This document shows positions 3,770 through 52,800 of a stretch of DNA of 64,000 bases, one piece after another. The position numbers were made by a program, and so were the translations under genes. Each line of letters begins with the position of its first letter. The first letter of the stretch is position 1. Origin of the DNA: Patescibacteria group bacterium (GTDB lineage: Bacteria; Patescibacteriota; Patescibacteriia; UBA2196); assembly GCA_028748975.1 (NCBI GenBank), contig JAQTPI010000004.1, forward strand, positions 14,734 through 78,733, given 5' to 3'. The notes under the pieces were generated by a model. The model had not been told where the DNA came from, did not search any database, and was given only the letters and a program-made list of their open reading frames with translations.

Positions 3770-4004
3770 TTTGCTTTCCTCCTTCCTTGTTTGGTTTTGA
3801 ATGAGCTTTTTGTTTATTTTTGGCTAAAATTAGCCATTTTAGTAAAATCAGTAGTACTTCATATTGTATAAGTGTGTTTTTTTAGATTTTCGTTACACTT
3901 GACTTTTTTCTTTACTCCAATTATACATCTATTTTATGATTTCTGTCAAGTTGGATTAAATGATATAATATAGATATAATACTTTATCCACAAAAAATTA
4001 AAGA

Positions 4005-4040
4005 TTCCCTCCGCTAGCTGGCGGATCACGGGAATGACAT
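4005..4040. repeat. Partial copy of the family-A palindromic element (ccgctagctggcgg hairpin followed by the ...ggaatgaca end).
   Basis: Its sequence motifs are shared with the copies at 23984..24141 and 24426..24486. Confidence 0.4.
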
Positions 4041-4065
4041 TAATAACAGACGACCTCACCCCCAA

Positions 4066-10348: not shown

Positions 10349-10374
10349 ATAGTTTTTGTAATAAAATTTTTTAG

Positions 10375-11933: not shown

Positions 11934-12039
11934 TTTGGGCCTAGCGGCCTCCTACGAATGTACGAATTCTACCAAGATACTAATAATAAAAAACGAAATG
12001 ACAAAATGATTTTATTTCCCTATATCCTTATTTCTTTAT

Positions 12040-12132
12040 TTTCTGTTCCCCTTATTACTTATTACTTATTACTTATTACTAGTTACTTATTACCCGCTTC
12101 TAATGTTTTTATGCTTTAATGTTTTAATGTTT
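12040..12132. repeat. Microsatellite block: (TTATTAC)n / TTATTACTAGTTACTTATTAC, then (TTTTAATG)n running into the annotated start region.
   Basis: Direct reading. These are reverse complements of the GTAATAAG / CATTAAAG families seen after other genes. Confidence 0.8.
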
Positions 12133-12153
12133 TTATGGTATAATAAAATAGAT

Positions 12154-14043
12154 ATGCACCACAGAAAAATCTTACTGACTTTTCTGTTTTTAGCCGTTCT
12201 GATGATTGGCGGATTTTTGGCGTCAACAAAAGCGGCCTGGGCCGGCACTGGTAAAATCGTGGGCGATAAATATAACCTGCCCTATCCGCGCATCGGCGTG
12301 TTTCTTTGGGCCGGCACCACGGAATGGTTCGCGCAAAAAGGAATTGATTTGGTGGCGGCGAGCCCGGGCGTGGACATTGAGGGAGTAAAAAAATTAAGTC
12401 CGAAAGTTTTAGTCAGCCACACCAATGACATCAATAAATTATGCGGCGACGATCGGCCGGAAGAATGGTATTATCATGACGCCGATGGCAATCGTGTTTC
12501 CTACTGGGGCGGCTATCTTTGTAATTTTAATTATCAGCCTTTCCGTGAATTCGTCGGCAATACTTTTGCCGGCATGGTGGGCGGCGCCGATTTCGTCACC
12601 ACCGATGGGCTGTGGACCATGCCTGGCCGGGCAGAAATTTTACAGACGGTTCGAAGCCGGATTGGCGACACGCCTTTTATGGTCAATGGCAATGGCGGCT
12701 ATGAACAAGATAAAAGCATGTATGAATATTACAATGGCAGTTTTTTGGAAGATGGCGGCAATTTCAACAGCAATTGGGATTCAGCTTTTGGCACCTATGA
12801 AGACATGATGAATTATGCCCGCCAGCCGCACATCATCGTCATTGACGGCACCCCGACCAACTGGAGCTTGCCCAACATGACTGATGATTTCAAATTGATG
12901 CGCTTTGGCCTTGGCACGACGCTTCTTGGCGACGGCTATTTTTCTTACGAAGTCGGAATTAATAATCATTTTTATATCGGCTATTTTGACGAGTATGATT
13001 TGGATTTGGGCTATCCCAAAGGCGCGCCGCAGTGCATCAAAAACGAAGGCCGCTGGGGTTATGAAAAACGCTGCGTTTTCGTGAGGTTTTTTGACAAGGG
13101 CGTTTCCATTTTGAATGTCAAAGGCAAATCCGAATCAATCAGTGATAATGATTTAAAAAGCTTGCCCGGTTATGCTGGCCCGTATTATCGCTTTCGGGGC
13201 GGGCAGGACACGGTTTGGAATAATGGACAGCTTTTTACCAGTTTGAATTTGGACGGCCAGAAAGAATTAACCAACGAGCAGTACGAGCATTATAAAATTT
13301 GGGGTGACGCCATCATTCTTTTAAAAGAACCGAAAGTGGTGGTGGCGGACATTATTATTGATGACCACCCGCTGGTCACCTCGCCGGCTAACAAACAAAC
13401 AGAACTGAAAGGTGCGGCCTGGGAAATTGTCAAACCCGGTAAAGGCGATAAGTTTTGGCGGCTTTATAGTTCGGAATTGGGAGAAAGTCCGGCATCTTAC
13501 GGCGCGATTTCCGCCAGTAAAAACGCGGAAGCAATTTTTCGGCCAAAGATTGGCGTGCCGGGCCGCTACCGCGTCTCTGAATGGCATGGCAATGATTATG
13601 CCGAGAGTGAAACAACCAGCGCCATTTATGAAATAAATTATAAAGGCGGAGTTAAAGTTGAATCAATTAACCAATCCCAAAGTTATGGCCAATGGAATTT
13701 TTTAGGCGAGTTTTATTTCACAGAGGGAGACAGCGGCTATGTCAAATTGAATAATAATGGCCAAGGAGTTTTGGTAGCGGACGCGGTGAAATTTGAATAT
13801 CAAGACGCGGTGTTGATGGCTGACTTTAACTGTGACGGGCAGATTAATATCGCTGATTTCGGAATTTTATTGTCGCACTGGGGGCAAAAAGAAAATAACG
13901 GTTCGCTGAAAAAATACAAACATCCCCTGTGTCAGGAAGCAAAAAGTTTGGATTTAGTGTTAGATAATACAATTAACATCAAAGATTTGGGCGCCCTGCT
14001 TTCCTGCTGGGGCAATCCGGATAATGAGACGTGTTATCAGTAA
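12154..14043 (+). CDS. Secreted protein (about 629 aa) with a C-terminal pair of dockerin-like Ca-binding repeats.
   Basis: The likely true start is ATG 12154 (MHHRKILLTFLFLAVLMIGG); the track ORF 12103 begins inside the TTTTAATG repeats. The C-terminus carries DFNCDGQINIADFGILLSHWG ... NTINIKDLGALLSCWG, which resembles dockerin type-I duplicated repeats. Confidence 0.65.
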   Translation: MHHRKILLTFLFLAVLMIGGFLASTKAAWAGTGKIVGDKYNLPYPRIGVFLWAGTTEWFAQKGIDLVAASPGVDIEGVKKLSPKVLVSHTNDINKLCGDDRPEEWYYHDADGNRVSYWGGYLCNFNYQPFREFVGNTFAGMVGGADFVTTDGLWTMPGRAEILQTVRSRIGDTPFMVNGNGGYEQDKSMYEYYNGSFLEDGGNFNSNWDSAFGTYEDMMNYARQPHIIVIDGTPTNWSLPNMTDDFKLMRFGLGTTLLGDGYFSYEVGINNHFYIGYFDEYDLDLGYPKGAPQCIKNEGRWGYEKRCVFVRFFDKGVSILNVKGKSESISDNDLKSLPGYAGPYYRFRGGQDTVWNNGQLFTSLNLDGQKELTNEQYEHYKIWGDAIILLKEPKVVVADIIIDDHPLVTSPANKQTELKGAAWEIVKPGKGDKFWRLYSSELGESPASYGAISASKNAEAIFRPKIGVPGRYRVSEWHGNDYAESETTSAIYEINYKGGVKVESINQSQSYGQWNFLGEFYFTEGDSGYVKLNNNGQGVLVADAVKFEYQDAVLMADFNCDGQINIADFGILLSHWGQKENNGSLKKYKHPLCQEAKSLDLVLDNTINIKDLGALLSCWGNPDNETCYQ

Positions 14044-14118
14044 GCATTAAAGCAATAAAGCATTAAAGCAATAAAGCAATAAAGCAATAAAGCAATAAAG
14101 CAATAAAGCAATAAAGCA
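14044..14118. repeat. Tandem octamer microsatellite (CAATAAAG/CATTAAAG) x9.
   Basis: Direct reading between the stop at 14043 and the ATG at 14129. Confidence 0.9.
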
Positions 14119-14128
14119 AACAGAAACC

Positions 14129-16216
14129 ATGAAAGAAAAATCTGAAAATAAAACATTATCTATTGCCTTTGGAATAATTTTGGGCGTGCTTTTATTTTTC
14201 TTTGGCAAGCTGTGTCTGGCCGCTGTTTTTCCCGGCATTGATTTGCCGACTTTTGAAGAAAGGAGAGCGGCTTACATTAAAGACCAGGGGCAAAGCGTCA
14301 GCGGCGATTTTCCCTACTCCATGAGAATACCGCTTTTTGCCTGGCTGGAAACACCAGAGCAAAACAAAGGACGAATTAGCGAGGAAATTGGATACATGAC
14401 CAGTATGGGCGATGATTGCAGTAGTGGACAGCAAGATTGGAGCAATTGCTGGTGGACCGGCGACCACCCCAACACCATTGTCGCCAGTTATGTTTATTAC
14501 AAATATTATCAGGATAAAAAAGTTATTTATGATTCAGACGCGGCCAGAATCAGAGAAAAATTATTTTCCATCGCCGAAATGGGCACCAAAAAGGACTTGG
14601 CCAAAACTTTTTGGGGCTGCGACGGCAATTATTTTTATCGTTATTTTGTGACTGGATATCTTTACGCCGTCAGAATTGGCGGGCTGGGCAAGGCGTATTT
14701 TGATAACGTGCCAACCTGTGCCAATAAGTTCACTTACCAGGGCCGAAAATACACTAGTGGAAATTATTACGAGGCAAAACAATTTTATAGCGATTATCTG
14801 GGGTACACCATGGATTCCTTGCTGAAAAGTGGAGACAACGAGGATTTTGGCAATTACTATTATTCCCAAATTCAATCCATTGCTGCTGTTTATGATTTTA
14901 GTCCGGACGCGCAACTGAAAAGAAAGGCGAAAATGCTCTTGGATTGGCTGAACTTCACTTATGCTGTCGGTTTTAGCGTCGGACATTTTGCCGACGGCCA
15001 TGGCCGCACCTATTTTGAATATCACGGGCGAGTGATGGATAATTTTCCTTTTTCCACTTTTTTCTATCTTGATAAACACCTGGCCGAACAGCTGCAAATG
15101 TGGTCCAATTCCCAAGAATTTTATATTTCCGCTTACCGCTATCCGGAGGTGATGAGAAAAATTTTTGAAAAAATAAACGGTCCGAATATGTCGGAAACCG
15201 ACGGTGATTATTATCGGATTGTGCGCGGCAACGATCCGCGGCTGGGCTGTGAAAAAACAGATCGGGGAGAGAAATGCTATCGCTATGAATATGTGACGCC
15301 GTATTATAATCTGGGCGGTTCTGGTTTGGGCACGGGCTGGGAGTTGAATATCAAAAGCGAGACATTGCCGTTTCGGGTTTGGATAAATTCTTGCAACAAG
15401 GTTTATGAAAGAGGCTGCAACGGGCAGCTGACTTGGGGCTGGAGCGAACTGTTTAGAACAGGAGCTTTGGGTTACCAATATAAAAACGCCATTTTCTATT
15501 ATGGCGGCGGTAACATCCAGCAAGAGATTGGCAACGGTTCTTGGTCAGAGACGGCGGAATATGATTATAAAGATGGCTGGGGGGATGAAAGAAAGTGGCA
15601 GTTTTTTAGAAAAGAAGGCGTGGCTGTGGCGGCGGAAGTCAGAGGCAATGGCCCTTCGGCGCTGGAAGTGGTAAAACTGGGCGTGGATTATCCGGATTTC
15701 AACTCTTTCATTGGGGCGGTGAAGAGAAATTCTAAATTAAGCTGGGATGGTTTTACCACCAGTAAGGGCTTCACCATTACCAAAGGATTTGTTGATTATG
15801 GTTCGGAATATACCAAATTGCCTTTTGACCGGCTGGAAGTTTGGGAGGGACATGTTAATAAAAATGATGAGAAAAAAATTGTTGATTGGAATAACAATGT
15901 GATGACAGTGACACAAGGCAATTTAACGTGCAAATATAATTTTAACAGCTGGACTTTTTCTGGTAATGGCTGCGCGGGCCAGGGCGCCGCTTACAAGGCC
16001 GATTTCAACTGCGACGGGGTGATAAATATTTCCGATTTTGGAATTTTGCTGTCGCACTGGGGGCAGACGGAGAAAATTAAAGAGTATCAAAACGCCCAGT
16101 GCGGCGTGGCAAGAAGCTTGGATTTGGCGGCGAATAATCGAATTGACACCAGTGATTTAAGCGCCTTGCTTTCCTGTTGGGGCACGCCGGAGGAGGAAGT
16201 GTGCATGGAGAAGTGA
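14129..16216 (+). CDS. Secreted protein (695 aa) with the same C-terminal dockerin-like module as 12154..14043.
   Basis: It has an N-terminal signal anchor. The C-terminus DFNCDGVINISDFGILLSHWGQ ... NRIDTSDLSALLSCWGTPEEEVC is near-identical to the module of its neighbour. Confidence 0.7.
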   Translation: MKEKSENKTLSIAFGIILGVLLFFFGKLCLAAVFPGIDLPTFEERRAAYIKDQGQSVSGDFPYSMRIPLFAWLETPEQNKGRISEEIGYMTSMGDDCSSGQQDWSNCWWTGDHPNTIVASYVYYKYYQDKKVIYDSDAARIREKLFSIAEMGTKKDLAKTFWGCDGNYFYRYFVTGYLYAVRIGGLGKAYFDNVPTCANKFTYQGRKYTSGNYYEAKQFYSDYLGYTMDSLLKSGDNEDFGNYYYSQIQSIAAVYDFSPDAQLKRKAKMLLDWLNFTYAVGFSVGHFADGHGRTYFEYHGRVMDNFPFSTFFYLDKHLAEQLQMWSNSQEFYISAYRYPEVMRKIFEKINGPNMSETDGDYYRIVRGNDPRLGCEKTDRGEKCYRYEYVTPYYNLGGSGLGTGWELNIKSETLPFRVWINSCNKVYERGCNGQLTWGWSELFRTGALGYQYKNAIFYYGGGNIQQEIGNGSWSETAEYDYKDGWGDERKWQFFRKEGVAVAAEVRGNGPSALEVVKLGVDYPDFNSFIGAVKRNSKLSWDGFTTSKGFTITKGFVDYGSEYTKLPFDRLEVWEGHVNKNDEKKIVDWNNNVMTVTQGNLTCKYNFNSWTFSGNGCAGQGAAYKADFNCDGVINISDFGILLSHWGQTEKIKEYQNAQCGVARSLDLAANNRIDTSDLSALLSCWGTPEEEVCMEK

Positions 16217-16291
16217 GGGAGACAAAGCCTGCCCTGAGCGACCATAGGGAGTCGAAGGGCTCCGTTCAAACCCGGGAAGACAATATTAAAT

Positions 16292-16603
16292 ATGAAAAAA
16301 ATAATTGAATATTTTGTTTATATTTTAACTAATAACAAAAAATCAATGTTTTATGTCGGCCAATCAAATAATTTAATTCGTCGGACATGGCAACATAAAC
16401 ACAAACTCATTAATGGTTTTACTAAAAAATATAATCTTGATAAACTTGTTTATTATGAAATTTATGTGACGTTAGAGCAAGCACTAAAGAGGGAAAAACA
16501 ACTTAAGGGTTGGACAAAAGTAAAAAAGATAAATTTAATTAAAAAAATAAATCCCGAACTAAAAGATTTTTCCGATGATTGGTGGCATAAAAATTTGATG
16601 TAG
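16292..16603 (+). CDS. Stand-alone GIY-YIG nuclease domain protein (103 aa).
   Basis: YFVYILTNNKKSMFYVGQSNNLIRRTWQHK ... GFTKKYNLDKLVYYE ... REKQLKGW contains the GIY..YVG, R..QH and conserved E/N hallmarks. It is paralogous to 40046..40357. Confidence 0.7.
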   Translation: MKKIIEYFVYILTNNKKSMFYVGQSNNLIRRTWQHKHKLINGFTKKYNLDKLVYYEIYVTLEQALKREKQLKGWTKVKKINLIKKINPELKDFSDDWWHKNLM

Positions 16604-16621: not shown

Positions 16622-18731
<2,110 letters not shown>

Positions 18732-19407: not shown

Positions 19408-19540
19408 CGAGTTGGAGGACATGGTTTTTAATAGTAATTATTAATTTTAAAAAAATGATAAATAAAAAACGGTTAATTGAAAATGATGTTGAAATTCAAT
19501 TAACCGTTTATTGAGAATCACCAAAAAATTGGTGATGAGA

Positions 19541-19612
19541 GTCGGCGGAGGGATTCGAACCCCCGAACACGGATTTGCAATCCGTGTCCTTAAACCACTC
19601 GGACACGCCGAC
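19541..19612 (-). tRNA. tRNA-Cys (GCA).
   Basis: The reverse complement folds as a cloverleaf: acceptor GTCGGCG, D-arm TGTCCGAGTGGTTTAAGGACA, anticodon stem ACGGA/TCCGT with loop TTGCAAA, and T-arm GGGGGTTCGAATCCC. Confidence 0.8.
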
Positions 19613-19623
19613 AACTCTGTCAG

Positions 19624-19698
19624 TACGCCCGGAAGGATTCGAACCTTCAACCCTTCCCCACAAGAGCGGGGTGCTCTATCCAATTGAGCTACGGGCGC
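19624..19698 (-). tRNA. tRNA with a canonical D- and T-arm but an irregular anticodon stem; the anticodon is probably CTT (Lys).
   Basis: Acceptor GCGCCCG/CGGGCGT, D-arm TAGCTCAATTGGATAGAGC and T-arm GAAGGTTCGAATCCTTC are canonical. The anticodon region CCCCG-CTCTTGT-GGGGA pairs only 3-4 bp, so the anticodon assignment is tentative. Confidence 0.5.
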
Positions 19699-19731
19699 GC
19701 TGCCATGAAATGAATTCGTCACGGCTAGCTT

Positions 19732-19808
19732 TGGCGCCACCTACGGGTTTTGAACCCGTATTCCCCGGATCAATAATCCGAAGTCTTAACCAATTAGATG
19801 AAAGCGGC
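19732..19808 (-). tRNA. tRNA-like gene with an encoded CCA and an atypical anticodon loop (TTATTGA, giving anticodon ATT); possibly a pseudo-tRNA or a non-canonical decoder.
   Basis: Acceptor GCCGCTT/AGGTGGC (two G-U pairs), a weak D-stem, anticodon stem TCGGA/TCCGG, T-arm ACGGGTTCAAAACCCGT, and a 3' GCCA end. A34 with G37 is abnormal. Confidence 0.35.
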
Positions 19809-19827
19809 TCTGCTGAAATAATTTTGT

Positions 19828-19898
19828 AGCGGGCGAGGGACTCGGACCCCAACCTTCGGTGTATCAGACCGAAACTCTGCCAATTGAGCTACGCCCGC
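19828..19898 (-). tRNA. tRNA-Ile (GAT).
   Basis: Acceptor GCGGGCG/CGCCCGC, D-arm TAGCTCAATTGGCAGAGT, anticodon stem TCGGT/ACCGA with loop CTGATAC. The T-arm is somewhat irregular. Confidence 0.7.
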
Positions 19899-19903
19899 AG
19901 TTT

Positions 19904-20054
19904 TGGTGGAGCCGGCAGGATTCGAACCTGCGACCTTTCAAACTCGTAGAATTGGCCAATTTTTCCCTCACGCGCGCTTGGGAAAATTTGGGCAATTTTT
20001 ACCCTCTTTTTTAAGGAGAGAAGTTTGAAAACTCTCCCAACTGAGCTACGGCCC
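19904..20054 (-). tRNA. tRNA with Ala-type identity elements (G3:U70, D-arm TAGCTCAGTTGGGAGAG, encoded CCA), interrupted by an about 85-nt insertion between the two halves of the anticodon stem; intron-containing or disrupted.
   Basis: 5' half GGGGCCGTAGCTCAGTTGGGAGAGTTTTCAAAC, and 3' half GTTTGAAAGGTCGCAGGTTCGAATCCTGCCGGCTCCACCA. The halves TTCAAAC/GTTTGAA pair across an insert that has its own hairpins (ttttccc...gggaaaa; the AATTGGCCAATT palindrome). Confidence 0.55.
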
Positions 20055-20208
20055 CGATTCAACACGAGAACAAAATCGTAAAATAAAGTGACTTTTTTAT
20101 TTTAACAAGGTCTAAAAAACTTGTCAAATGTGGATAAGTAATATAAAATATAATAAGTAACTACCAATAAATAATAAGGGAAAAAATGAATAATCCCAAT
20201 GTTATTTT

Positions 20209-20502
20209 ATGCTAACACAAGAAGAAGTAAAACATATTGCGGATTTGGCGCGACTGGAACTGGTGCCGGAAGAGATTGAAAAATACCAAACACAGTTGGG
20301 GCGGATTTTGGATTATATAAATAAATTGGCGGAAGCCAAAACAGAAGGGGTGTCGACGGCGGATGGGGGAACGACGGATTTGGAAAACGTGTGGAGGACA
20401 GATGAAAAATCAGAAATTGGAAATCAGAAATCAGGTACGGATTTAATAAAAATGGCAGGAGAGGTGGAAGGAGGACAGGTGAAGGTGAAGAGTGTGTTTT
20501 AA
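20209..20502 (+). CDS. gatC: Asp/Glu-tRNA amidotransferase subunit C.
   Basis: MLTQEEVKHIADLARLELVPEEIEKYQTQLGRILDYINKL matches the GatC N-terminal pattern, and the gene sits immediately upstream of gatA. Confidence 0.85.
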   Translation: MLTQEEVKHIADLARLELVPEEIEKYQTQLGRILDYINKLAEAKTEGVSTADGGTTDLENVWRTDEKSEIGNQKSGTDLIKMAGEVEGGQVKVKSVF

Positions 20503-20611
20503 ACCATGAAAGCATGAAAACATAAAAGCATTAAAGCAAAAATAGTAATTAAAAATAAAGGTTAGTTGTTTTTGTTTTCATGTTTTAATGCTCTAATATT
20601 TTAATGTTGGT

Positions 20612-22030
20612 ATGATAAAAGAATTACATAATAAATTAATAAACAAAGAAATTTCGGCGGTGGAACTCACGACCGAGTATTTGGCGCGGGCTAAAAAATC
20701 AGATTTGAACGCTTTTATTACGATTACGGAAAGTGAAGCACTGGAACAAGCGGCGGTAGTGGACGAAGCGATTGAGAGAGGCGAAGAAATTCCGCTTTTG
20801 GCCGGCATACCGGCTTCCATTAAGGATTTATTAATGACAGAAGGCGTGCGCACGACCGCGGCTTCCAAAATTTTAGAAAATTATATCGCGCCTTATGACG
20901 CCACAGTGGTGAAAAAATTAAAAGAAAACGGTCTGGTCATGATTGGCAAAAACAACTGCGATGAATTTGCCATGGGGTCTTCCACCGAAAATTCAGCTTT
21001 TGGTCCGACTAAAAATCCTTATGACAAAACGCGAGTTGCGGGCGGCACTTCCGGCGGCTCCGCCGCCGCCGTAGCTAGTGATTTGTCCATCTATTCTATT
21101 GGCACGGACACTGGTGGCTCGGTGCGCCAACCAGCTGCTTTTTGTGGCGTGGTGGGAATGAAACCGACTTATGGGGCAGTTTCTCGTTTTGGGCTTATTG
21201 CTGACGCGTCATCACTGGATCAAGTCGGAGTGATTGCCAAAAGCGTGGAAGACGCGGAAATTGTTTTTAATGCTATTAAAGGGAAAGATGAGAGGGACGC
21301 GACTTCGACATTAAAACATGAAAACATTAAAACATTAAAACAAAACAATGGATTAAGGGGCATTAAAATTGGAATACCGAAAGAATATTTCAGCGAGGGT
21401 ATTGATCAGGAAGTGGGCGAGGCAATAGCTGATTTTATTAAACGGGCCAAAGATTTGGGCGCGGAAATTGTGGAAATAAGTTTGCCGCATATGGAGTATG
21501 CTTTGACCGTTTATTATATTATTCAGCCGGCCGAAGCCAGCGCGAATTTGGCACGTTATGACGGAGTTAGATACGGTAAATTAACAATTAACAATAAACA
21601 ATCAACAAATAACCAATTAATTGATATTTACAAAAAGACGCGGGCGGAGTTTTTGGGGCCGGAAGTGAAACGTAGAATAATGCTCGGGACATACGCTCTA
21701 TCTGCCGGCTACTATGATGCTTATTACAAAAAAGCGCAGCAGGTCCGGACTTTAATTCGAGAAGATTTTAAGAAAGCATTTGAGGAAGTGAATCTGATTT
21801 TCGCGCCAACCGCGCCGCATCCGGCTTGGAAAATTGGCGAAAAAATTGACGATCCCTTGGCAATGTATTTGGAAGATATTTTCACAGTGCCGGTTAATAT
21901 CGCAGGTTTGCCAGCACTGTCAGTGCCGGCCGGTATCACTAAAGCGGGGCTGCCAATTGGCGCGCAGATTATTGGTGGTTGGGGAAAAGAGGAAGAAATA
22001 TTTCAGGCGGGGAAAACGTTAGAGTTATAG
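20612..22030 (+). CDS. gatA: Glutamyl-tRNA(Gln) amidotransferase subunit A (amidase signature family).
   Basis: Gly/Ser-rich amidase signature GGSSGGSAAAVAS...GTDTGGSVRQPAAFCGVVGMKPTYG, and a Ser-cisSer-Lys triad context. Length is 472 aa. It contains short in-frame AT-rich repeat insertions (STLKHENIKTLKQNN; TINNKQSTNNQ). Confidence 0.95.
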   Translation: MIKELHNKLINKEISAVELTTEYLARAKKSDLNAFITITESEALEQAAVVDEAIERGEEIPLLAGIPASIKDLLMTEGVRTTAASKILENYIAPYDATVVKKLKENGLVMIGKNNCDEFAMGSSTENSAFGPTKNPYDKTRVAGGTSGGSAAAVASDLSIYSIGTDTGGSVRQPAAFCGVVGMKPTYGAVSRFGLIADASSLDQVGVIAKSVEDAEIVFNAIKGKDERDATSTLKHENIKTLKQNNGLRGIKIGIPKEYFSEGIDQEVGEAIADFIKRAKDLGAEIVEISLPHMEYALTVYYIIQPAEASANLARYDGVRYGKLTINNKQSTNNQLIDIYKKTRAEFLGPEVKRRIMLGTYALSAGYYDAYYKKAQQVRTLIREDFKKAFEEVNLIFAPTAPHPAWKIGEKIDDPLAMYLEDIFTVPVNIAGLPALSVPAGITKAGLPIGAQIIGGWGKEEEIFQAGKTLEL

Positions 22031-22113: not shown

Positions 22114-22186
22114 ACGAGATCCCTCGGCTCCCCGCCTAAATTTTTGCCCCGCAAAAATTTAGGCGGGTCGCTCGGGATAAACTAAA
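22114..22186. repeat. Family-A palindromic element (acgagatccctcg ... cgctcgggataaacta) with the internal hairpin ccgcctaaatttttgc/cccgcaaaaatttaggcgg.
   Basis: Its ends match the consensus of the other copies. Confidence 0.8.
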
Positions 22187-23261: not shown

Positions 23262-23610
23262 TTCTTTTGCCACCTTTTTATAAAGGTGGCGCCAAAATCG
23301 CCGCTGTAAAAAAGTAGTTTTTATGCCCCTTTCTTTGGACAAAGACTTTTTTCCGTTCTTTTTTTAGAAAAAAGAACCAAAAAAGCGCCGCCAGCAAAAA
23401 AGCTTCCACAAAATCGGCTGCGTCCTCGCTAAACCCGTTAACTCCTTGTTCCGCCTCGTCCTGATGGACTTCGGCGGAACTGCGTCAGACAGAAGCGGGT
23501 TTTTCTCCGCCCCGGGCGGAGAACCGCTCCGACTTAGCTCGATTTTGTCGGGAACCTTTTTTGAAGCGGCAGTCGCAACGATGACATAATTGTTTTAATG
23601 TTTTAATGAC
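23262..23610. repeat. Long non-coding leader upstream of lgt; homologous to the leader upstream of ftsW (36800..37072).
   Basis: Blocks are shared in order: ttgccacctttttaNtaaaaggtggcgccaaaa.cgccgctgtaaaaaag ; gttaactcct ; cgtcagacagaagc ; ggcggcagtcgcRacgatRa ; ttttaatgttttaatg ATG. Confidence 0.6.
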
Positions 23611-24687
23611 TTGATGTTTTTACATAATTATATTCCCAATCCAATTTTACTTGATTTAGGATTTTATCAAATCCGCTGGTATGGCCTTATTTTAGCGTTG
23701 GCCGTGGCTGGCGGATTTTTTATTCTTGCCCGCCTTCGCCGCTACGGTCAAGCCGGCGGCTATGGCGGGCAAGTTTCTGATCTTTTTACCAAAGACAATT
23801 TTTTTAATCTATTATTTTGGGTTGCGATTTGGGGAATTATCGGCGGAAGGTTGGTTCATGTTTTAACTTTTTTTGATTATTACTGGCAGCGGCCGCTGCA
23901 GATACTCGCAATTTGGAACGGGGGAATCGCTTTCTATGGCGTGTTTGCTGGTGGGTTAATTGCGGCAGGGGTTTTGACGCGCCGTGTCATCCTGAGCGAA
24001 GCCCGAATCCGCCAGCTGGCGGAGAGGGCGAAGCCGAAGGATTCCTCATACTTTCCATATGATAAAGGCGAAGGCCCGCCCGCCATGACTTCGTCAAGGC
24101 GAAGTCGGGCGGGGATTCATCGCTCCGCTCGGAATGACAAGAAAAACAAAACCATTATTCATCATTCATTATTCATTATTCTTGATGCCCTCGTCGTCGG
24201 CTTGGCTTTCGGCCAATTCATCGGCCGGTGGGGAAATTGGTTTAATCAGGAGCTTTTTGGAGGGCCAACGAATTTGCCTTGGGGAATTCCGATTGATATT
24301 TGGCATAGGCCAGTCGGCTTGGAAAATTTTACTTACTTTCATCCAATTTTTTTGTATGAGAGTCTGTTTTCTTTGGTTTTGTTTTTGGGGTTGTATTTTT
24401 TATACAAAAAAATACATTGTCATTTCGGGCCGAGACCCGGAATCCAGGAGAGTGGATCCCGGATCGGAGTCCGGGATGACAAGGCGGGTTTTGTTTTCTC
24501 CGCTTTTTTAATCTTCCATTCCACTGCCCGGTTTTTTTTGGAGTTTTTGCGCCTTGACGCGCAGCCGGAGTTTTTGGGTCTGTGCCTTTTCCAGTGGGTG
24601 GCGATAATAGAATTTATTTTGGGGTGGGTTGTGTATTTTTATGTTAGGGTGTGGTATAATAAAAGTAAGCTACGAATTTACGAATAA
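23611..24687 (+). CDS. lgt: Prolipoprotein diacylglyceryl transferase carrying two in-frame palindromic-element insertions.
   Basis: Lgt hallmarks are present (WYGLILALAVAGG, GGRLVHVL, WNGGIAFYGVFAGG, GRWGNWFNQELFGG, FLRLDAQPEF). They are interrupted by an about 50-aa insert (VILSEARIRQ...NDKKNKT) and an about 20-aa insert (GPRPGIQESGSRIGVRDDKAGF), encoded by family-A elements. Confidence 0.85.
   Translation: MMFLHNYIPNPILLDLGFYQIRWYGLILALAVAGGFFILARLRRYGQAGGYGGQVSDLFTKDNFFNLLFWVAIWGIIGGRLVHVLTFFDYYWQRPLQILAIWNGGIAFYGVFAGGLIAAGVLTRRVILSEARIRQLAERAKPKDSSYFPYDKGEGPPAMTSSRRSRAGIHRSARNDKKNKTIIHHSLFIILDALVVGLAFGQFIGRWGNWFNQELFGGPTNLPWGIPIDIWHRPVGLENFTYFHPIFLYESLFSLVLFLGLYFLYKKIHCHFGPRPGIQESGSRIGVRDDKAGFVFSAFLIFHSTARFFLEFLRLDAQPEFLGLCLFQWVAIIEFILGWVVYFYVRVWYNKSKLRIYE
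23984..24141. repeat. Composite of two family-A palindromic elements inserted in-frame in lgt.
   Basis: gtcatcctgagcgaagcc...ccgccagctggcgg...cgaaggattcct and ...ggattcatcgctccgctcggaatgacaa. No stop codons are present in the lgt frame. Confidence 0.75.
24426..24486. repeat. Family-A palindromic element inserted in-frame in lgt (second site).
   Basis: gggccgagacccggaatccaggagagtggatcccggatcggagtccgggatgacaa. Confidence 0.7.
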
Positions 24688-26701: not shown

Positions 26702-27145
26702 ATGGAACAGATTCCAATAAAAAAACCAATAATAAGTTTTAGAGATCTTGATGTTTATCAAAATTCTTATCGAGCAAGTATTGTCGTGATGACCAAAATA
26801 ATTCCCGCACTTCCAGCAAATGAGAAATATGATTTAAAAGATCAAATACAAAGAGCGTGTAAAGCAATTCCGCGTTTAATAGCCGAGGGTTTTGCAAAGA
26901 AACATCAGAAATTTGGTTTTCAGAAGTATCTTGATGATGCAATGGCCGAGTGTAATGAAATGATTGTTTGTATAGAACATGTAAAAGATATTTATAGAAT
27001 TCAAACAGATTTATGCGAAGAATTAATTGATACTTATGATAAGTCTGCAAGACAGCTGTTTAAATTAGGTGAGGCATGGTGCAATTTTAAGAATAGGAGA
27101 CGAATGACGATGCCGAATGACGATACGGGTGGCGACGCCGTATAA
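26702..27145 (+). CDS. Four-helix-bundle protein of the '23S rRNA intervening-sequence protein' family.
   Basis: FRDLDVYQNSYRASIVVMT...IQRACKAIPRLIAEGFAKK...YLDDAMAECNEM matches the family pattern (F.DL.VYQ...R...SIP.NIAEG). Its last about 15 codons are encoded by the right IR arm. Confidence 0.7.
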   Translation: MEQIPIKKPIISFRDLDVYQNSYRASIVVMTKIIPALPANEKYDLKDQIQRACKAIPRLIAEGFAKKHQKFGFQKYLDDAMAECNEMIVCIEHVKDIYRIQTDLCEELIDTYDKSARQLFKLGEAWCNFKNRRRMTMPNDDTGGDAV

Positions 27146-27155
27146 CGTAAAACAA
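27098..27155. repeat. Right inverted-repeat arm of the four-helix-bundle cassette.
   Basis: The reverse complement gttttacgttatacggcgtcgccacccgtatcgtcattcg is approximately equal to the left end of the 41206 element (cgttttacgttaaacggcgtcgccgcccgtatcgtttacg). Confidence 0.65.
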
Positions 27156-27180
27156 TTAATAATTTTTTAAGATAAAATAT

Positions 27181-28915: not shown

Positions 28916-28970
28916 TAGTTTATCCCGAGCGAGGCCGATAGCCATCGGCTGAGTCGAGGGATCTCGTGGA
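28916..28970. repeat. Family-A palindromic element (reverse orientation).
   Basis: tagtttatcccgagcgaggccgatagccatcggctgagtcgagggatctcgtgg. Confidence 0.8.
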
Positions 28971-29117
28971 AGAAAAAGGTAATAAGTAACTAGTAATAAG
29001 TAATAAGGAAAACAAAACCCAACGAGAATTACAAAAGCCGCCCCGACATTCGTCGGGGCGGCTTATTATTAAATTTTATTAGCATTATTCGCCCATCATT
29101 CGCAGTATTTGTAAATT

Positions 29118-32088: not shown

Positions 32089-32485
32089 TGGTGGAGGCGG
32101 CCGGAATTTCACCGGCGTCTAACGTTAATCAATAAACTATTCTACAAGCGTAGTTCGTTTTATGGTTCAACTTTAAGCTTGAAAACGGACAAAACACTTA
32201 AAGTTAAAGCCCAGAGTTTCGCCATTTTTACCGGGCCAGTAACAATGGCTAGTCCACTGTTTATAACACCCAAAACGACTTAGTGAACCTCGGTCGTTTG
32301 GATGGCCATAGGATTTAAGCTATGGCATAAGCCGGTTGAGAAACAAAAGCGTTAGCCAAAGAGGCAACGCCAGCTTTCACCCGGTTATATAGATTGGCAT
32401 TTATAGCCTTTGAGGCGGTTTTACGGGGCACCCCGGCCCGACTTGCTTAATTTAAAGCTTAAAGCTATCAAATTAAAACGCCCCC
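32089..32485 (-). ncRNA. ssrA: Candidate tmRNA (ssrA), about 397 nt, with an encoded CCA.
   Basis: 5' GGGGGCG pairs with 3' CGCCUCC-A-CCA and includes G3:U70. A T-arm GCCGG-UGAAAUU-CCGGC is present. A pseudoknot-like CCGGGGUGCCCCGUAAAACCGCC precedes an internal reading frame ending ...QPAYAIA-UAA (GCC AUA GCU UAA), which resembles tag-peptide termini. smpB lies 0.7 kb away, and a TTGACA-17-TATACT promoter lies 58 nt upstream. Confidence 0.55.
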
Positions 32486-33158: not shown

Positions 33159-33599
33159 TTACATAATTTGTCTTTTACTTCTTTCAAACTCTCTTTTCTT
33201 GATGCTTTCTCTTTTATCAAATTTCTTTTTGCCGCGGGCGACGGCGATTTTGATTTTGATTAAATTGTGCGCCAAGTGGACGGAAAGAGGAATAATACTG
33301 ACGGTTTTTTCGTTTTGTTTGCCGAGCAAATAATTTAATTCTTTTTTAGTGAGCAATAATTTGCGGGAACGGTTGGGATCATAGCCTTTTTGCGCGGTCT
33401 TCGCGGGTTTATAGGCGGCAATGTAGGATTTTTCCAAATATGCTTCGCCATGGGCGTTGATGGTGACATAGGCGCCTTTCAAATCAATTTGGCCGGCGCG
33501 GGCGGATTTGACTTCGGGGCCGGTCAAAACCAAACCCGCCTCGAAGGTTTCGAGTATTTGATAATCAAAATTGGCTTTTCTGTTTTCAGCGAGTAACAT
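33159..33599 (-). CDS. smpB: SsrA-binding protein.
   Basis: NRKANFDYQILETFEAGLVLTGPEVKS...GKQNEKTVSIIPLSVHL...ARGKKKFDKRE matches SmpB. Confidence 0.95.
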   Translation of the reverse strand: MLLAENRKANFDYQILETFEAGLVLTGPEVKSARAGQIDLKGAYVTINAHGEAYLEKSYIAAYKPAKTAQKGYDPNRSRKLLLTKKELNYLLGKQNEKTVSIIPLSVHLAHNLIKIKIAVARGKKKFDKRESIKKREFERSKRQIM

Positions 33600-35217: not shown

Positions 35218-35274
35218 TAAATAATAATTCAATAATTTGATAATTCAATAACGAGATCCTTCGCTTTGCTCAGG

Positions 35275-36762
35275 ATGACAATCACTAAAAAAATCCATTT
35301 TATCGGCATTGGCGGGACGGCCATGGCAGCACTCGCCGTGGCTTTTAAACGCGCCGGATTTATTGTGACCGGTTCGGACTCGGGTAATATTTTTCCGCCG
35401 ATGAGCACGCATTTAAAAAAAAATGGAATTAAATATGGCTTGGGGTTTAAAGAAAAAAATTTAGGCCAGCCGAACGAAGTGGTTCTTGGCAATGCCCATG
35501 TCAGTAATTTAAATCCGGAAATCGCGATGGCTAAGAAAAGAGGATTGCCAATCATTCACTTTCCGCGGTTGATAGAAAAATATCTGATTAAGAAAAATTC
35601 AGTGGTAGTGGCAGGAACTTATGGTAAAACAACCATCACGGCCATGGCAGCCTGGCTTTTGGAAAAGGCGGGTAAAAATCCAAATTATATGCTCGGCGGC
35701 ATTCCGATTGATTTGGAAAACGGCGCACGATTAATAAAATCTGATTGGTCAGTCACCGAAGGCGATGAATATCCGGCAGCCTCTCCCTGGGACAGCGCGC
35801 CAAAATTTAAATATTATCATCCCAAATTTTTAATTTTGACTTCGGCGGAATGGGATCACATGGATGTTTATAAAACTAAAGAAAGTTATTTGGAGGTTTT
35901 TCGGAAATTGGTAGCAAGCGTGCCAGAAAATGGATTGATTGTGGCAAAGGCGGGCGGAGAGAATTTGGCTGGTGTTTTGAAGGGGGCGAAGTGTAAAATA
36001 ATTTATTATAGCAATCAGAAATTAGAAAACAGAAATCAGGATGAAAAATTATATTATATTAGTGGTGTGGAGGTAATTGGTGATAAGACTAAATTTATAG
36101 TAAAGAAACGCCTATCGGCGAAAATAAATAACCACCCCCGCTCCGTTGCTACGGAGCGACCCCTCCTTGAAAAGGAGGGGATGACCACCACCGTTGGCGA
36201 GTTTGAGACAAAACTTTTAGGCGAATTTAATTTGGAAAATTGGTGTGCGGCAGTGGCGCTGGCGATAGAGTTGAGAATTCCATTGAAGAAAATTCAGGCC
36301 GGAGTGAAAAGTTTTTCCGGAGTGAAAAGGAGATTGGAGATTCGCGGAGTGAAAAAAGGCGTGACCATAATTGATGATTTCGCGCATAATCCGGCGAAAG
36401 CGCGGCAGTCGGTTTTGGCCTTGCGCCGGCATTTTCCCAAAAATAAAATTTACGTAATTTTTGAACCAAATCGCGGTGGCCGATCGGAAAAATGTCTATC
36501 GGGATATAATAAAGTTTTTGCCGGTATAACAAAAGTTTTTATTTCAAAATTAACCGAATATCCGCCCAAAAAGGGAGTGAAAGATGTTTCGGGTAAGGAA
36601 TTGGTAAAGTATTTGAAAAAGACGCACGGAGGCGTAACTTATGAACCAGAAACGAAGGAACTAATAAACAAGTTGAAGAAAATTGCTAAAAGCGGCGATG
36701 TGATCGCGTTTTTGGGGTCGAGGAATTTTGGAGGTGTACTTGAACGGTTGTTGTCATCCTGA
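35275..36762 (+). CDS. Mur ligase family protein (MurC/Mpl-like) with an in-frame hairpin-element insertion; its stop codon lies inside a family-A element.
   Basis: KKIHFIGIGGTAMAALAVAF N-terminus, GTYGKTTITAM P-loop, DEYPAASP, and a C-terminal Mur ligase domain. ATG 35275 is preferred over the TTG track start at 35266. Confidence 0.8.
   Translation: MTITKKIHFIGIGGTAMAALAVAFKRAGFIVTGSDSGNIFPPMSTHLKKNGIKYGLGFKEKNLGQPNEVVLGNAHVSNLNPEIAMAKKRGLPIIHFPRLIEKYLIKKNSVVVAGTYGKTTITAMAAWLLEKAGKNPNYMLGGIPIDLENGARLIKSDWSVTEGDEYPAASPWDSAPKFKYYHPKFLILTSAEWDHMDVYKTKESYLEVFRKLVASVPENGLIVAKAGGENLAGVLKGAKCKIIYYSNQKLENRNQDEKLYYISGVEVIGDKTKFIVKKRLSAKINNHPRSVATERPLLEKEGMTTTVGEFETKLLGEFNLENWCAAVALAIELRIPLKKIQAGVKSFSGVKRRLEIRGVKKGVTIIDDFAHNPAKARQSVLALRRHFPKNKIYVIFEPNRGGRSEKCLSGYNKVFAGITKVFISKLTEYPPKKGVKDVSGKELVKYLKKTHGGVTYEPETKELINKLKKIAKSGDVIAFLGSRNFGGVLERLLSS
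36125..36185. repeat. Two GC hairpins (cgctccgt-tgct-acggagcg and family-B cccctcctt-gaaa-aggagggg) inserted in-frame in the Mur ligase gene (encoding NHPRSVATERPLLEKEGM).
   Basis: Direct reading. The reading frame is maintained. Confidence 0.65.
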
Positions 36763-36800
36763 GGACGAGCGGAGCGAGGACGAAGGATCTCGTAGTTTTT
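36757..36800. repeat. Family-A palindromic element overlapping the Mur ligase stop codon (gtcatccTGAgg...).
   Basis: tgtcatcctgaggacgagcggagcgaggacgaaggatctcgtag. Confidence 0.7.
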
Positions 36801-37072
36801 TTCTTGCCACCTTTTTTAGTAAAAGGTGGCGCCAAAAAGCGCCGCTGTAAAAAAGTTTTGACAAATTCAAGCTCGTCGTCATTAATTTTGTTAACTCCTC
36901 GTTTTGCTCGGTTTGCGCTCAAACCTCGCAAAACTTCGTCAGACAGAAGCAAAATTTTTTCACTGCGGTGAAAACCACTCCTCCTCGCCTCGAATTTATA
37001 CCAAAACTTTTTTAAGGCGGCAGTCGCGACGATAATGTTATTGTTTTTATGTTTTAATACTTTAATGTTTTT
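36800..37072. repeat. Long non-coding leader upstream of ftsW; homologous to the lgt leader (23262..23610).
   Basis: See 23262..23610. It ends in ttttatgttttaatactttaatgttttt ATG. Confidence 0.6.
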
Positions 37073-38173
37073 ATGAAAAACCAACACACCGACTATTCGC
37101 TCATAATTTTAATATTTATTCTGGTGGTTTTTGGTTTGACCATGCTTTCTTCCGCCTCCACGGTGGCGGGGTTTACCAGATATAATGACAGCTATTATTT
37201 TTTAAAACACCAGCTTTTATACGGTTTATTGCCGGGCTTGATTTTATTTGTGATTTTGGCGCGGATGGACCCAAAAATTTGGCAGAAAAAATCAAGATTA
37301 ATTTTGGGTGCGGCATTGGTTTTGCTTGGCGCTTTGTTTTTGCCAGGCGTGGGCTCGATTTTTAATGGCGCGCGGTCATGGCTGAATTTGGGGCCATTTT
37401 CTTTGCAACCATCAGAGTTGGCAAAATTGGCACTGTTAATTTATCTTTCGGCCAGATTAACTGACAGCGGAGATAAATTACATAGTTTTTGGGGCGGATT
37501 AATGCCGCAAATTATTGTTATCGGTTTAATTGCGGGACTGGTGGCTATACAGCCTGACTTTGGCACAATGATGATTATTGTTTTAATCGGTCTCGGAGTT
37601 TGTTTTGTGGCCGGGATGCGCTGGCGGCATTTAATTTTTCTTTTGGCAGTTGGCGGACTAATGCTAATGGCGGCGATTAAAAAAATGCCGGAGCGCTTGG
37701 CGCGCCTGACTGTTTTTTTAAATCCAAATTTTGACCCGCAAGGTGTTGGTTATCATATTAAACAGGCGCTACTCGCGGTGGGCACTGGCGGATTGTTTGG
37801 TTTGGGACTGGGGCACTCGCGGCAGAAATTTCAATACTTGCCAGAAGTTTCCGGCGATTCAATTTTCGCGGTGATGGCGGAGGAATTGGGCTTTGTTTTT
37901 TCCATTGTTTTTATTATTTTGGTGGTGCTTTTGATTTTGAAATTGTTGCGTTTGGCGCGCCAAAGCCAAAATGGTTTTAATCGGCTGTATCTTGCCGGTT
38001 TGGCCATTTGGATTGGCGGGCAAACAATTTTTAATATTGGCGCGATGCTGGGAATTCTGCCCTTGACTGGCGTGCCCTTGCCTTTTGTGAGTTATGGCGG
38101 AACGGCTTTGATGACACTGCTCGCGGCAAGCGGAATCGCGGTCGGGATGGCAAAAGAAGTAACTAGTAATTAG
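37073..38173 (+). CDS. ftsW: SEDS-family peptidoglycan glycosyltransferase (FtsW/RodA).
   Basis: About 10 TM helices, with conserved QPDFGT, LPEVSGDSIFAVMAEELGF and PFVSYGGTAL motifs. Confidence 0.9.
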   Translation: MKNQHTDYSLIILIFILVVFGLTMLSSASTVAGFTRYNDSYYFLKHQLLYGLLPGLILFVILARMDPKIWQKKSRLILGAALVLLGALFLPGVGSIFNGARSWLNLGPFSLQPSELAKLALLIYLSARLTDSGDKLHSFWGGLMPQIIVIGLIAGLVAIQPDFGTMMIIVLIGLGVCFVAGMRWRHLIFLLAVGGLMLMAAIKKMPERLARLTVFLNPNFDPQGVGYHIKQALLAVGTGGLFGLGLGHSRQKFQYLPEVSGDSIFAVMAEELGFVFSIVFIILVVLLILKLLRLARQSQNGFNRLYLAGLAIWIGGQTIFNIGAMLGILPLTGVPLPFVSYGGTALMTLLAASGIAVGMAKEVTSN

Positions 38174-39987: not shown

Positions 39988-40038
39988 TTGTCATCCCGAG
40001 AAGGTTTGATAGCAATCAAACCGACGAGGGATCTCGTA
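39988..40038. repeat. Family-A palindromic element (reverse orientation) directly upstream of the GIY-YIG gene.
   Basis: ttgtcatcccgagaaggtttgatagcaatcaaaccgacgagggatctcgtaag. Confidence 0.8.
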
Positions 40039-40045
40039 AGAATTT

Positions 40046-40357
40046 ATGAAGAAAAGCAAGAATTACTGTGTTTATATCACGACGAACATTTGGGATAATG
40101 TTTTCTATGTCGGCATTTCTGGTAATTTGATAAAAAGAGAAAATCAGCATAAAGTAAAATTTAAAGACGGTTTTACTAAAAAATATAATGTTGATAAATT
40201 AGTCTATTTTGAATGTTTTGATAATCCAACCGAAGCTATCAAAAGAGAAAAAGAAATTAAGAGCTGGAGAAGAGAAAAGAAAATAAATTTGATAAAAACA
40301 ATAAATCCGGAGTTTAAAGAGTTGGGTGGAGATTGGTGGAGAAATATAATGGCGTGA
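40046..40357 (+). CDS. Stand-alone GIY-YIG nuclease domain protein (103 aa); paralogue of 16292..16603.
   Basis: NYCVYITTNIWDNVFYVGISGNLIKRENQHK...GFTKKYNVDKLVYFE...REKEIKSW. Confidence 0.7.
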   Translation: MKKSKNYCVYITTNIWDNVFYVGISGNLIKRENQHKVKFKDGFTKKYNVDKLVYFECFDNPTEAIKREKEIKSWRREKKINLIKTINPEFKELGGDWWRNIMA

Positions 40358-40479
40358 TGTCATCCCGAGCGGAGCGTGGGATCTCGTGGATGACAGTAAA
40401 TTATAATAAAATTAATTTGCGGAGTAAGCTACGAGATTCCTCGTCGTCCCGAAGCGTCAGGACTCCTCGGAATGACATC
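40358..40479. repeat. Two family-A elements: a hairpin-less 'joined-ends' copy overlapping the GIY-YIG stop, and a full forward copy.
   Basis: gtcatcccgagcggagcgtgggatctcgtgg ; acgagattcctcgtcgtcccgaagcgtcaggactcctcggaatgacat. Confidence 0.75.
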
Positions 40480-52743: not shown

Positions 52744-52800
52744 TTACGAGATCCCTCGACTCCGGCCGACTATTGTCGGCCTTCGCTCGGGATAAACTAA
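52744..52800. repeat. Family-A palindromic element.
   Basis: acgagatccctcgactccggccgactattgtcggccttcgctcgggataaactaa. Confidence 0.85.

Follow-up and report, generated by a model that had tools for sequence, protein, structure and literature searches.

A stretch of 64,000 nucleotides (nt) from a Patescibacteria group bacterium of the UBA2196 lineage (contig JAQTPI010000004.1, assembly GCA_028748975.1), here called the window in its full length, carries a dense family of short hairpin repeats. Copies are found in spacers, at the ends of genes and inside lgt, the gene for prolipoprotein diacylglyceryl transferase. They also flank ssn-1 and ssn-2, two genes for small Ssn-like proteins with a single GIY-YIG domain. 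The positions of these features are collected in Table 1.

Table 1. Hairpin repeats of the window, the genes they adjoin or enter, and the AT-rich tandem repeats.
Feature	Position	Strand	Support and details
Divergent single hairpin copy (…GGGAATGACA) with inner hairpin TCCGCTAGCTGGCGGA	3997..4042	-	Covariance model, 18.2 bits, E 0.11
Decayed left-end copy 5' of ssn-1	16228..16265	+	Read from the sequence
ssn-1, 103-amino-acid single-domain GIY-YIG (Ssn-like) gene	16292..16603	+	Pfam GIY-YIG, 5.6e-14; no other domain
Right-end copy 3' of ssn-1, directly before ligA	16622..16672	-	Two-end scan; covariance model E 2.2, long loop
Single copy, 44-nt perfect hairpin in loop, end variant GGGATAAAC	22114..22183	-	End matches, two-end scan, covariance model
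lgt, prolipoprotein diacylglyceryl transferase, 357 amino acids	23614..24687 (open reading frame 23611-24687)	+	Pfam PF01790, 4e-51
lgt dimer 1, head-to-head	23985..24139		Left arm 23986-24045, GTCAT on +; right arm 24112-24138 on -; two-end scan, covariance model
lgt dimer 2, head-to-head	24418..24481		Left arm 24419-24448 (+), right arm 24452-24481 (-); covariance model E 8.3 and 0.2
Single copy, end variant GTTTATCCC, directly 3' of the DUF2207 gene stop	28917..28967	+	Ends, two-end scan, covariance model E 0.53
Short-form copy with …GGATGACA end, at the start of the MurC-like ligase gene	35249..35283	-	Best covariance-model match, 44.9 bits, E 3.3e-7
Copy at the end of the MurC-like ligase gene	36749..36795	+	Covariance model E 2.4e-4
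Complete ssn-2 unit	39988..40478	+	Covariance model E 3.7e-4, 1.2e-4 and 9.5e-4; four-way alignment
ssn-2, 103-amino-acid single-domain GIY-YIG gene	40046-40357	+	Pfam GIY-YIG; no other domain
Single copy, loop hairpin GGCCGAC…GTCGGCC, end variant GGGATAAAC	52744..52798	-	Ends, two-end scan, covariance model E 0.33
AT-rich tandem repeats (first part)	10307-10362, 12035-12154, 14037-14132, 20497-20639, 21301-21356, 23585-23641		
AT-rich tandem repeats (second part)	28970-29022, 37028-37092, 38153-38202, 42601-42650, 52589-52638		

The repeats and their partner genes

The left end of the repeat, ACGAGATCCYTCG, has eight matches in the window with at most one mismatch, against an expectation of 0.01, and the right end, CGCTCRGGATRA, has eight against an expectation of 0.69. 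A scan that required both ends within 70 nt returned 11 strong copies, whereas Markov shuffles gave about one weak match. A covariance model was also constructed from 45 copies, all of them from other genomes and phyla and none from the window; its best 13 window matches are 13 of the 14 positions that an earlier note on this sequence had named. Six copies have E-values below 1e-3, and the other seven (0.1-2.2) are penalised for long loop insertions. The position missed by the model, 16228, has kept the stem GCCCT/AGGGC and the GA bulges, and its GTCAT tag is gone. Because the copies align under a statistical model and their stems covary strongly, the dense repeat family of the earlier note stands as real. 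The model's matches show no strand bias (five on the plus strand, eight on the minus strand), and most copies sit in short spacers between co-directional genes. No Rfam family matched the copies, whether gathering thresholds were applied to the window together with 16 loci or relaxed E-values to 39900-40560. Literature searches with the literal repeat strings gave nothing but coincidental human primers, and searches on GIY-YIG proteins and transposable elements of the miniature inverted-repeat type (MITEs), palindromic repeats in Patescibacteria, UPF0213/YhbQ, and small dispersed repeats of cyanobacteria gave nothing relevant.

An oriented hairpin about 27 nt long, (T/C)GTCAT-stem-GA-GC-loop-GC-GA-stem-ATCTC, forms the basic unit. 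Its GTCAT strand has the consensus (T/C)GTC-ATYCY-GA-GC-loop-GC-GA-RGRAT-C(TC) in the repeat alignment. Two of the nine stem positions are G·A/A·G mismatches. The loop measures 3-5 nt in the short forms (35253-35279, 40359-40385) and up to about 45 nt in others, which hold modular GC-rich inner hairpins as long as 44 nt. Sequence varies in the five outer stem pairs, but complementarity is kept: when matches in the window and in the 80 loci described below were anchored on unpaired positions only, 245 of 293 had perfectly complementary stem triplets, and these were of 11 types. In the repeat alignment 98.4% of the cells are paired, compared to 14-47% in slid controls, and six of the seven pairs show compensatory changes. 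The invariant columns that remain unpaired are G, T, C and A on the 5' side and T and C on the 3' side; in front of the invariant GTC the window copies mostly have T (TGTCAT), and copies in other genomes have either T or C. The repeat is therefore not the palindrome of about 60 bp with terminal inverted repeats that had been proposed, but a short oriented hairpin with conserved unpaired tags that often occurs in inverted pairs. As to the inner hairpins, TCCGCCAGCTGGCGGA is present in two copies, and the copy at 3997..4042, in the spacer between a radical-SAM gene and the open reading frame (ORF) of 2068 codons, has its inner hairpin in common with a copy in lgt. The copy in the gatA–glutaredoxin spacer (22114..22183) folds as DNA with -23.8 kcal/mol (z -6.9).

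The proteins encoded by ssn-1 and ssn-2 are 57% identical, and each gene is bracketed by repeats. All four flanking spacers hold a copy, for which a hypergeometric estimate gives p≈0.002, with about 10 of 40 window spacers occupied. The ssn-2 unit consists of a left hairpin (39988-40037, GTCAT strand on the plus strand), the gene, a nested mini-dimer (40358-40396) and a right hairpin (40431-40478, GTCAT strand on the minus strand). The GIY-YIG genes are thus partner genes of the repeats, and not the bystanders for which they had been taken. NCBIfam and PADLOC returned no informative family for the two proteins, and the nearest solved structures, all weak matches, are UPF0213 proteins and the N-terminal domain of UvrC. 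No transposase, of the Y1, DDE or any other type, and no REP-associated tyrosine transposase (RAYT; REP, repetitive extragenic palindrome) was found among the annotated ORFs of the window.

Homologues of the window-type GIY-YIG protein with 50-60% identity are found across many phyla. We compared 80 such loci, from Patescibacteria, Melainabacteria, Planctomycetota, Chloroflexota, Ignavibacteria, Bacteroidota, Firmicutes, Gammaproteobacteria, Omnitrophota and Cyanobacteria; single loci are cited by L numbers. The two-end motif reaches 4.25 copies per kb within 100 nt of the gene, compared to 0.06-0.09 copies per kb at more than 1.6 kb from it, which is a 50- to 70-fold difference. The usual layout has a GTCAT strand a few nt 5' of the start codon, on the coding strand, and a reversed copy a few nt after the stop codon, with the tags facing outward. 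The narrow motif is found within 100 nt on both sides in 20 of the 80 loci, and most of the others have variant classes with the same ends, for example GTCATCCTGAACTTGTTTCAGGATC in Melainabacteria and GTCATTGCGAGCGAAGCGAAGCAATC in cyanobacteria. In L076 repeats of the G·A-bulged class surround a gene that belongs to the window's clade, and a second paralogue, 43% identical to the window protein (E 2e-20), has canonical repeats like the Neisseria repeat NTS, discussed below, on both sides.

The two ends of a unit differ systematically in subtype: the copy upstream of ssn often has the stem ATTCT/AGAAT and the downstream copy ATCCT/AGGAT (L036, L050, L061, L032, L053, L033 and others). The second paralogue of L076 (5607-5885), the one with the NTS-like repeats, has an in-frame TAG and is probably a dead copy. 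On a Brumimicrobium contig, near the ssn locus, there is a match to the Acido-Lenti-1 RNA (L035, 8583-8629, 46.5 bits).

Copies at syntenic sites, in lgt and at gene ends

Two groups of relatives provided syntenic comparisons. L085-L087 share the gatA–lgt block, and L088-L090 share the murC-like–ftsW–hlyD–ABC–macB block, in which HlyD is 82% identical. The comparisons reveal seven differences in presence or absence. The copy at 22114..22183 is missing from the corresponding spacer of L085, L086 and L087. The hlyD–ABC spacer, which houses the full ssn unit in the window, contains a gene-less head-to-head dimer in L088; conversely, L088 has an ssn unit between two macB genes and a copy upstream of ftsW, and the window has neither. 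Genes that are 95%, 89% and 79% identical to ssn-2 reside in other contexts, between NifU genes or between recJ and an RNase H gene, whereas ssn-2 lies between hlyD and an ABC ATPase gene. In the four-way alignment homology starts exactly at (T)TGTCAT and stops at GGAATGACA, and these limits define the extent of the ssn-2 unit. Directly after the ssn-2 stop the window has a 38-nt mini-copy that L082 lacks. We conclude that both the unit of ssn with its hairpins and the dimers without the gene undergo gain and loss at syntenic sites, and that their boundaries are sharp.

The window Lgt, which matches an NCBI Patescibacteria protein at 100%, is considerably longer than its typical relatives (262-275 amino acids), with extra segments at about residues 126-184 and 265-291. 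The gene contains two head-to-head dimers, that is, four half-elements, together with a nested 39-nt GC hairpin. The earlier note had the copies in lgt in frame, as they are, and counted three of them, a number that does not hold. Its further claim that the insertions are specific to a lineage is borne out by the Lgt alignment, in which relatives have nothing or different elements.

Dimer 1 encodes VILSEARIRQLAERAK…RSARNDK. Its insertion point falls between residues 121 and 123 of the E. coli Lgt, in what we take, given the positive-inside rule and the known topology of Lgt, to be the loop on the cytoplasmic side that joins transmembrane helices three and four. At the same codon the window has this dimer in common with its three closest lineages, L084, L085 and L086, among Lgts that are 57-68% identical. 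More distant Lgts lack it and have either nothing or unrelated repeat-coded peptides in this loop. Between the window and L085 the left arm is identical at 59 of 61 nt (97%), whereas the flanking lgt codons are only 66-70% identical; in L084, the closer relative, the inner hairpin is a different one. When metagenome contigs were searched for exact matches to the left arm together with its inner hairpin, only the P0003 lgt lineage came up, so this module is not widely dispersed. The spacer of dimer 1 houses, in the window only, the 39-nt GC hairpin (24073-24111). This hairpin belongs to a GC-rich family (CCCGCCCG…CGGGCGGG) unrelated to the tagged repeats; its other copies lie in spacers of relatives (L085, ~105-145; L088, ~7425-7462), and only in the window is one in frame within an lgt dimer.

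Dimer 2, whose arms are separated by an 8-nt spacer, encodes CHFGPRPGIQESGSRIGVRDD. The same nucleotide is occupied by a dimer of another class in L084 and by an unrelated repeat in L085, and in L086 the site is empty. In the AlphaFold model of Lgt (predicted template modelling score 0.76) both inserts lie between helices at low confidence. The predicted local distance difference test (pLDDT) is 52-61 in the centre of dimer 1 and below 50 for residues 271-287 of dimer 2; VILSEARIRQLAERAK and RSARNDKKNK are modelled as helical extensions of the flanking transmembrane helices. In each orientation the unit is free of stop codons in two of three reading frames, so in-frame survivors in permissive loops are the expected outcome of selection.

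The same two loops hold other repeat-coded peptides in the Lgt homologues P0007-P0010, P0012, P0013 and P0017 and in the second insert of the L085 lgt, among them PLLIKEGSLE…PLTKGE, PPPYKGGE, CHSRFPVCHPRESGDP and CHPEQQP repeats. The two Lgt loops seem generally prone to collecting small repeats.

Copies also shape the ends of genes. The ORF of the MurC-like ligase gene (35266-36762) is supplied with an in-frame ATG (35275) and TTG (35266) by the copy at 35253-35279; its counterpart in L088 has a copy upstream too, but a separate ATG. At the other end the stop codon TGA (36760-36762) and the last codons lie inside the copy at 36753-36793, as had been claimed for this Mur ligase gene. The protein ends in …ERLLSS* in the window, compared to a native …ERIIS* in L088, where no copy is present. 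The same claim fails for the GIY-YIG gene ssn-2, whose stop codon (40355-40357) merely abuts the copy at 40358-40387 and does not overlap it.

The window has several other features. A cluster of six tRNA genes occupies 19539-20055 on the minus strand. One Rfam match in this cluster spans 149 nt (19907-20055), with about 75 nt interrupting the anticodon region, and ARAGORN gives the anticodon ATT (Asn) at 19732-19808 and an undetermined anticodon loop at 19623-19698. Many spacers just outside genes are filled with short tandem repeats, AT-rich and 7-8 nt in size, which are of the CATTAAAG / CATTAAAA and GTAATAA types, lie on either strand and form families throughout the window (Table 1). Another dispersed repeat is a pair of 39-nt inverted repeats, 90% complementary; one arm (27120-27158) comes after a gene encoding a 23S rRNA intervening-sequence protein, the second (41203-41241) after the ABC ATPase gene. 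Three very large ORFs, 4102-10308 (2068 amino acids), 45306-51938 (2210 amino acids) and ~53700-64000, which leaves the window, contain diverged repeats encoding GNVGIGTT-P. The genes for tmRNA (32089-32485) and smpB (33159-33599), both on the minus strand, are near each other and belong to ordinary housekeeping.

A probable Ssn-related system and its alternatives

A nuclease paired with tagged hairpin repeats is known from Neisseria, where SsnA is a 94-residue single-domain GIY-YIG protein (CDD cd10448; Chenal et al. 2025, Nat Commun, PMC11893778). According to that study, SsnA binds the hairpin repeat NTS (CGTCATTCCCGCGMAVGCGGGAATCYRG) solely as single-stranded DNA and on one strand, cleaves a few nt upstream of it, and reduces transformation by DNA that bears NTS; it is inactive towards duplex DNA and RNA, and RNA is not bound. 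Many bacteria have homologues of ssn with Ssn-related motifs (SRM), oriented hairpins of 20-50 nt, on their flanks, and the nucleotides critical for binding and cleavage are the three that precede the palindrome and the C that follows it (PMC11893778). The invariant unpaired positions of our repeat alignment coincide with these critical nucleotides, and the conserved Y10, Y21 and E68 of the window-type proteins are spaced identically to the catalytic Y6, Y17 and E64 of SsnA.

These correspondences, together with the enrichment of the repeats beside ssn genes, lead us to conclude that the elements of the window are very probably Ssn-related hairpin repeats, of the kind called SRM, NTS-like or CGTC-tagged REPs, and the cognate sites of the GIY-YIG nuclease Ssn. 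Their sequences suggest a divergent subclass within the Ssn/SRM system. We place them there because L076 carries both repeat classes and thereby bridges them. By analogy with the Neisseria enzyme, the GTCAT strand would fold once the DNA becomes single-stranded, and Ssn would bind it and cut a few nt 5' of the tag; on the same analogy, the proteins of the window are predicted to cleave its repeats. The ssn gene with its two outward-tagged hairpins behaves as a discrete unit that appears at different genomic sites, and the gene-less inverted pairs and single hairpins are probably its non-autonomous relatives. Movement could result from Ssn cutting just outside each end on opposite strands, or from recombination between copies. 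The copies within lgt, and those at either end of the MurC-like gene, are best seen as survivors of selection that sit in tolerant loops joining transmembrane helices or where genes begin or end.

Whether these units move under their own power is less secure. A possible reading, which we put forward tentatively, is that ssn and its hairpins are an active autonomous mobile element of a new type in which the GIY-YIG nuclease serves as transposase. The gene-less dimers would be miniature derivatives, loops would be landing pads for further hairpins, and the copies inside genes would be under constraint at the DNA level. If so, Patescibacteria show live turnover and the repeated colonisation of the same loops in an essential membrane enzyme.

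Several observations weigh against parts of this picture. The pattern published for SRM, HGTCWYN(0-2)YYVSBRHN(0-5)WNVSBRGN(0-2)RNCYNB, which is a search tool and not a definition, matches one of the 14 window copies (24452-24481) and none of the consensus short forms, and it has just eight matches across the 80 loci. Since it misses 13 of 14 copies, we regard the window repeats as divergent. Nearest-neighbour folding gives the short forms weak stability (z ~0), and the case for a hairpin therefore rests on covariation. The decayed left end of ssn-1 and the internal stop of the L076 paralogue indicate that some units are dead. At the unit and dimer boundaries examined we found no target-site duplication and no conserved target; recombination between dispersed copies, rather than transposition, could have produced the patterns.

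This last finding would fit the alternative that the repeats are immobile recognition tags of Ssn that serve the host, for example against incoming single-stranded DNA in transformation, and that change by recombination, deletion and gene conversion. The effect on transformation in Neisseria and the domestication of Ssn proposed by Chenal et al. (PMC11893778) are in keeping with it, as is the near identity of the lgt left arm between the window and L085, which fits nucleotide constraint or gene conversion; the difference in the hlyD–ABC spacer could be a simple deletion. However, tags of this kind do not readily explain near-identical ssn units in unrelated contexts whose homology ends exactly at the hairpin termini, the polymorphism of the nested 38-nt mini-copy, or the different element classes at one nucleotide of lgt in the window and L084, at a site that is empty in L086. 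Copies inside an essential gene are also hard to understand as purposeful. We consider domesticated tags unlikely, though a credible account.

It is improbable that the repeats function chiefly in RNA, ending transcripts, stabilising mRNA or marking sites for processing as classical REPs do, and that the GIY-YIG association is secondary. The abundance of copies in short co-directional spacers would suit such a role, and many REPs are argued to be transcribed (Di Nocera et al. 2013, BMC Genomics, PMC3733652), but the copies have no orientation bias and occur inside lgt and upstream of start codons. A T-run follows only one of about 14 copies (36774-36793, with a terminator-like score), and we rejected the idea of terminators on this ground. 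SsnA of Neisseria does not bind RNA (PMC11893778), no Rfam family matches, and the conserved unpaired tags coincide with positions of protein contact.

The retention of dimer 1 among Lgts of 57-68% identity could also be explained if the encoded peptides had been co-opted for Lgt function. The dimer has been kept in frame in the window, L084, L085 and L086, and the AlphaFold model extends the flanking helices into it. The conservation is, however, found at the nucleotide level and not in the peptide alone, the inner part differs between closer relatives, other Lgts have unrelated repeat-coded peptides or nothing in the same loops, and pLDDT is low in the inserts, which makes co-option quite improbable. 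The view of the earlier note, that these are uncharacterised selfish palindromes without a dedicated enzyme, similar to the Rickettsia palindromic elements (RPEs), would accommodate the copies in frame in an essential membrane enzyme and at gene ends, and no transposase had been found for CGTC REPs in 2013 (PMC3733652), but it is very improbable in light of the enrichment beside Ssn-type GIY-YIG genes across phyla, the bracketing of both ssn genes in the window, and the pairing of Ssn with SRM shown experimentally in 2025 (PMC11893778).

Comparison with known systems

Hairpin repeats with tags and a GIY-YIG partner, Ssn, were already known (PMC11893778), and so were in-frame head-to-head dimers (PMC3733652). 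As a family, the repeats are therefore not uncharacterised, as the earlier note had supposed; its statement holds in the narrower sense of Patescibacteria, which are a new host as far as the main texts of the two papers show. Also new are the repeat subclass that escapes the published SRM pattern and the comparative evidence of gain and loss of ssn units and gene-less dimers at syntenic sites. The assignment places a conspicuous repeat family of a genome from the candidate phyla radiation in a system, that of Ssn with its hairpin sites, for which both an enzyme and an assay now exist. It also widens the Ssn/SRM system by one repeat subclass and one protein clade, both overlooked by the published pattern. 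Genome-wide counts of the motif are consequently likely to be underestimates. The mobility of the ssn–hairpin unit was a hypothesis in PMC11893778; the turnover described here is among the clearest sequence evidence so far that hairpin–ssn–hairpin units and dimers come and go at defined sites. For annotation, the repeats account for recurrent peptides (VILSEA…, …RNDK, …VRDDK, CH(P/S/A)E…) and odd start and stop codons in such genomes.

The window resembles the Ssn/SRM system in its single-domain GIY-YIG proteins of about 100 residues with identical Tyr/Tyr/Glu catalytic spacing, in genes bracketed by oriented hairpins (both window ssn genes have a repeat 5' and 3' within 500 bp), in the many dispersed copies, in the conservation of the unpaired GTC that precedes the palindrome and of the C that follows, and in the distribution over many phyla. 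It differs from NTS and SRM in a stem broken by a tandem G·A bulge, in loops of 3 to about 45 nt, and in a tag that is mostly TGTC. The host belongs to a group that the main text of PMC11893778 does not name, and copies lie inside the essential gene lgt, whereas NTS is rarely intragenic (2%, PMC11893778).

The second close relative is the class of CGTC-tagged REPs described by Di Nocera et al. (PMC3733652), which includes dRS3 of Neisseria and RPE-4 and RPE-6 of Rickettsia. Head-to-head dimers predominate in this class, and intragenic units and dimers in frame encode 20-30 residues (PMC3733652). The window shares with it the short tagged hairpins, which appear to have the same 3-nt tail, the lack of a RAYT-type transposase, the head-to-head dimers with tags outside (two in lgt and the gene-less one in L088), and the in-frame intragenic units. 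CGTC REPs have stems of 8-9 bp and loops of 4-5 nt, whereas the window repeats have 5+2 bp around a 2x2 G·A bulge and loops that are often long; the class was reported from Proteobacteria, Chlorobi, Bacteroidetes, Spirochaetes and Thermotogae (PMC3733652), and not from Patescibacteria.

The architecture is also similar to that of the REP/REPIN–RAYT systems, in which inverted hairpins flank a single-copy nuclease gene, gene-less inverted doublets occur in spacers, and the enzyme acts on single-stranded hairpins. These systems have a GTAG tag and an HUH/Y1 transposase, where the window has (C/T)GTC and a GIY-YIG nuclease. We rejected membership in this class: the window repeats have no consistent GTAG tag, no RAYT or Y1 gene is present among the annotated ORFs, and the flanked gene encodes a GIY-YIG protein. 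Classical MITEs were rejected as well, given that no target-site duplication was found at the dimer and unit boundaries and no DDE transposase among the window ORFs.

RPE-1 of Rickettsia, which Ogata and colleagues are said to have described in 2000, reportedly inserts in frame into genes for functional proteins and is tolerated in surface loops; it is said to be 100-150 bp long, without a known partner enzyme, and confined to Rickettsia. The window elements resemble RPE-1 in their in-frame insertion, and its size and restriction to Rickettsia, as described, set them apart. The relationship to RPE-4 and RPE-6 exists at the level of the superfamily only, through the class of CGTC REPs that they share with dRS3 (PMC3733652). 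The likeness to Rickettsia palindromic elements that the earlier note had pointed out is thus apt, and it comes close to a statement of homology at the superfamily level.

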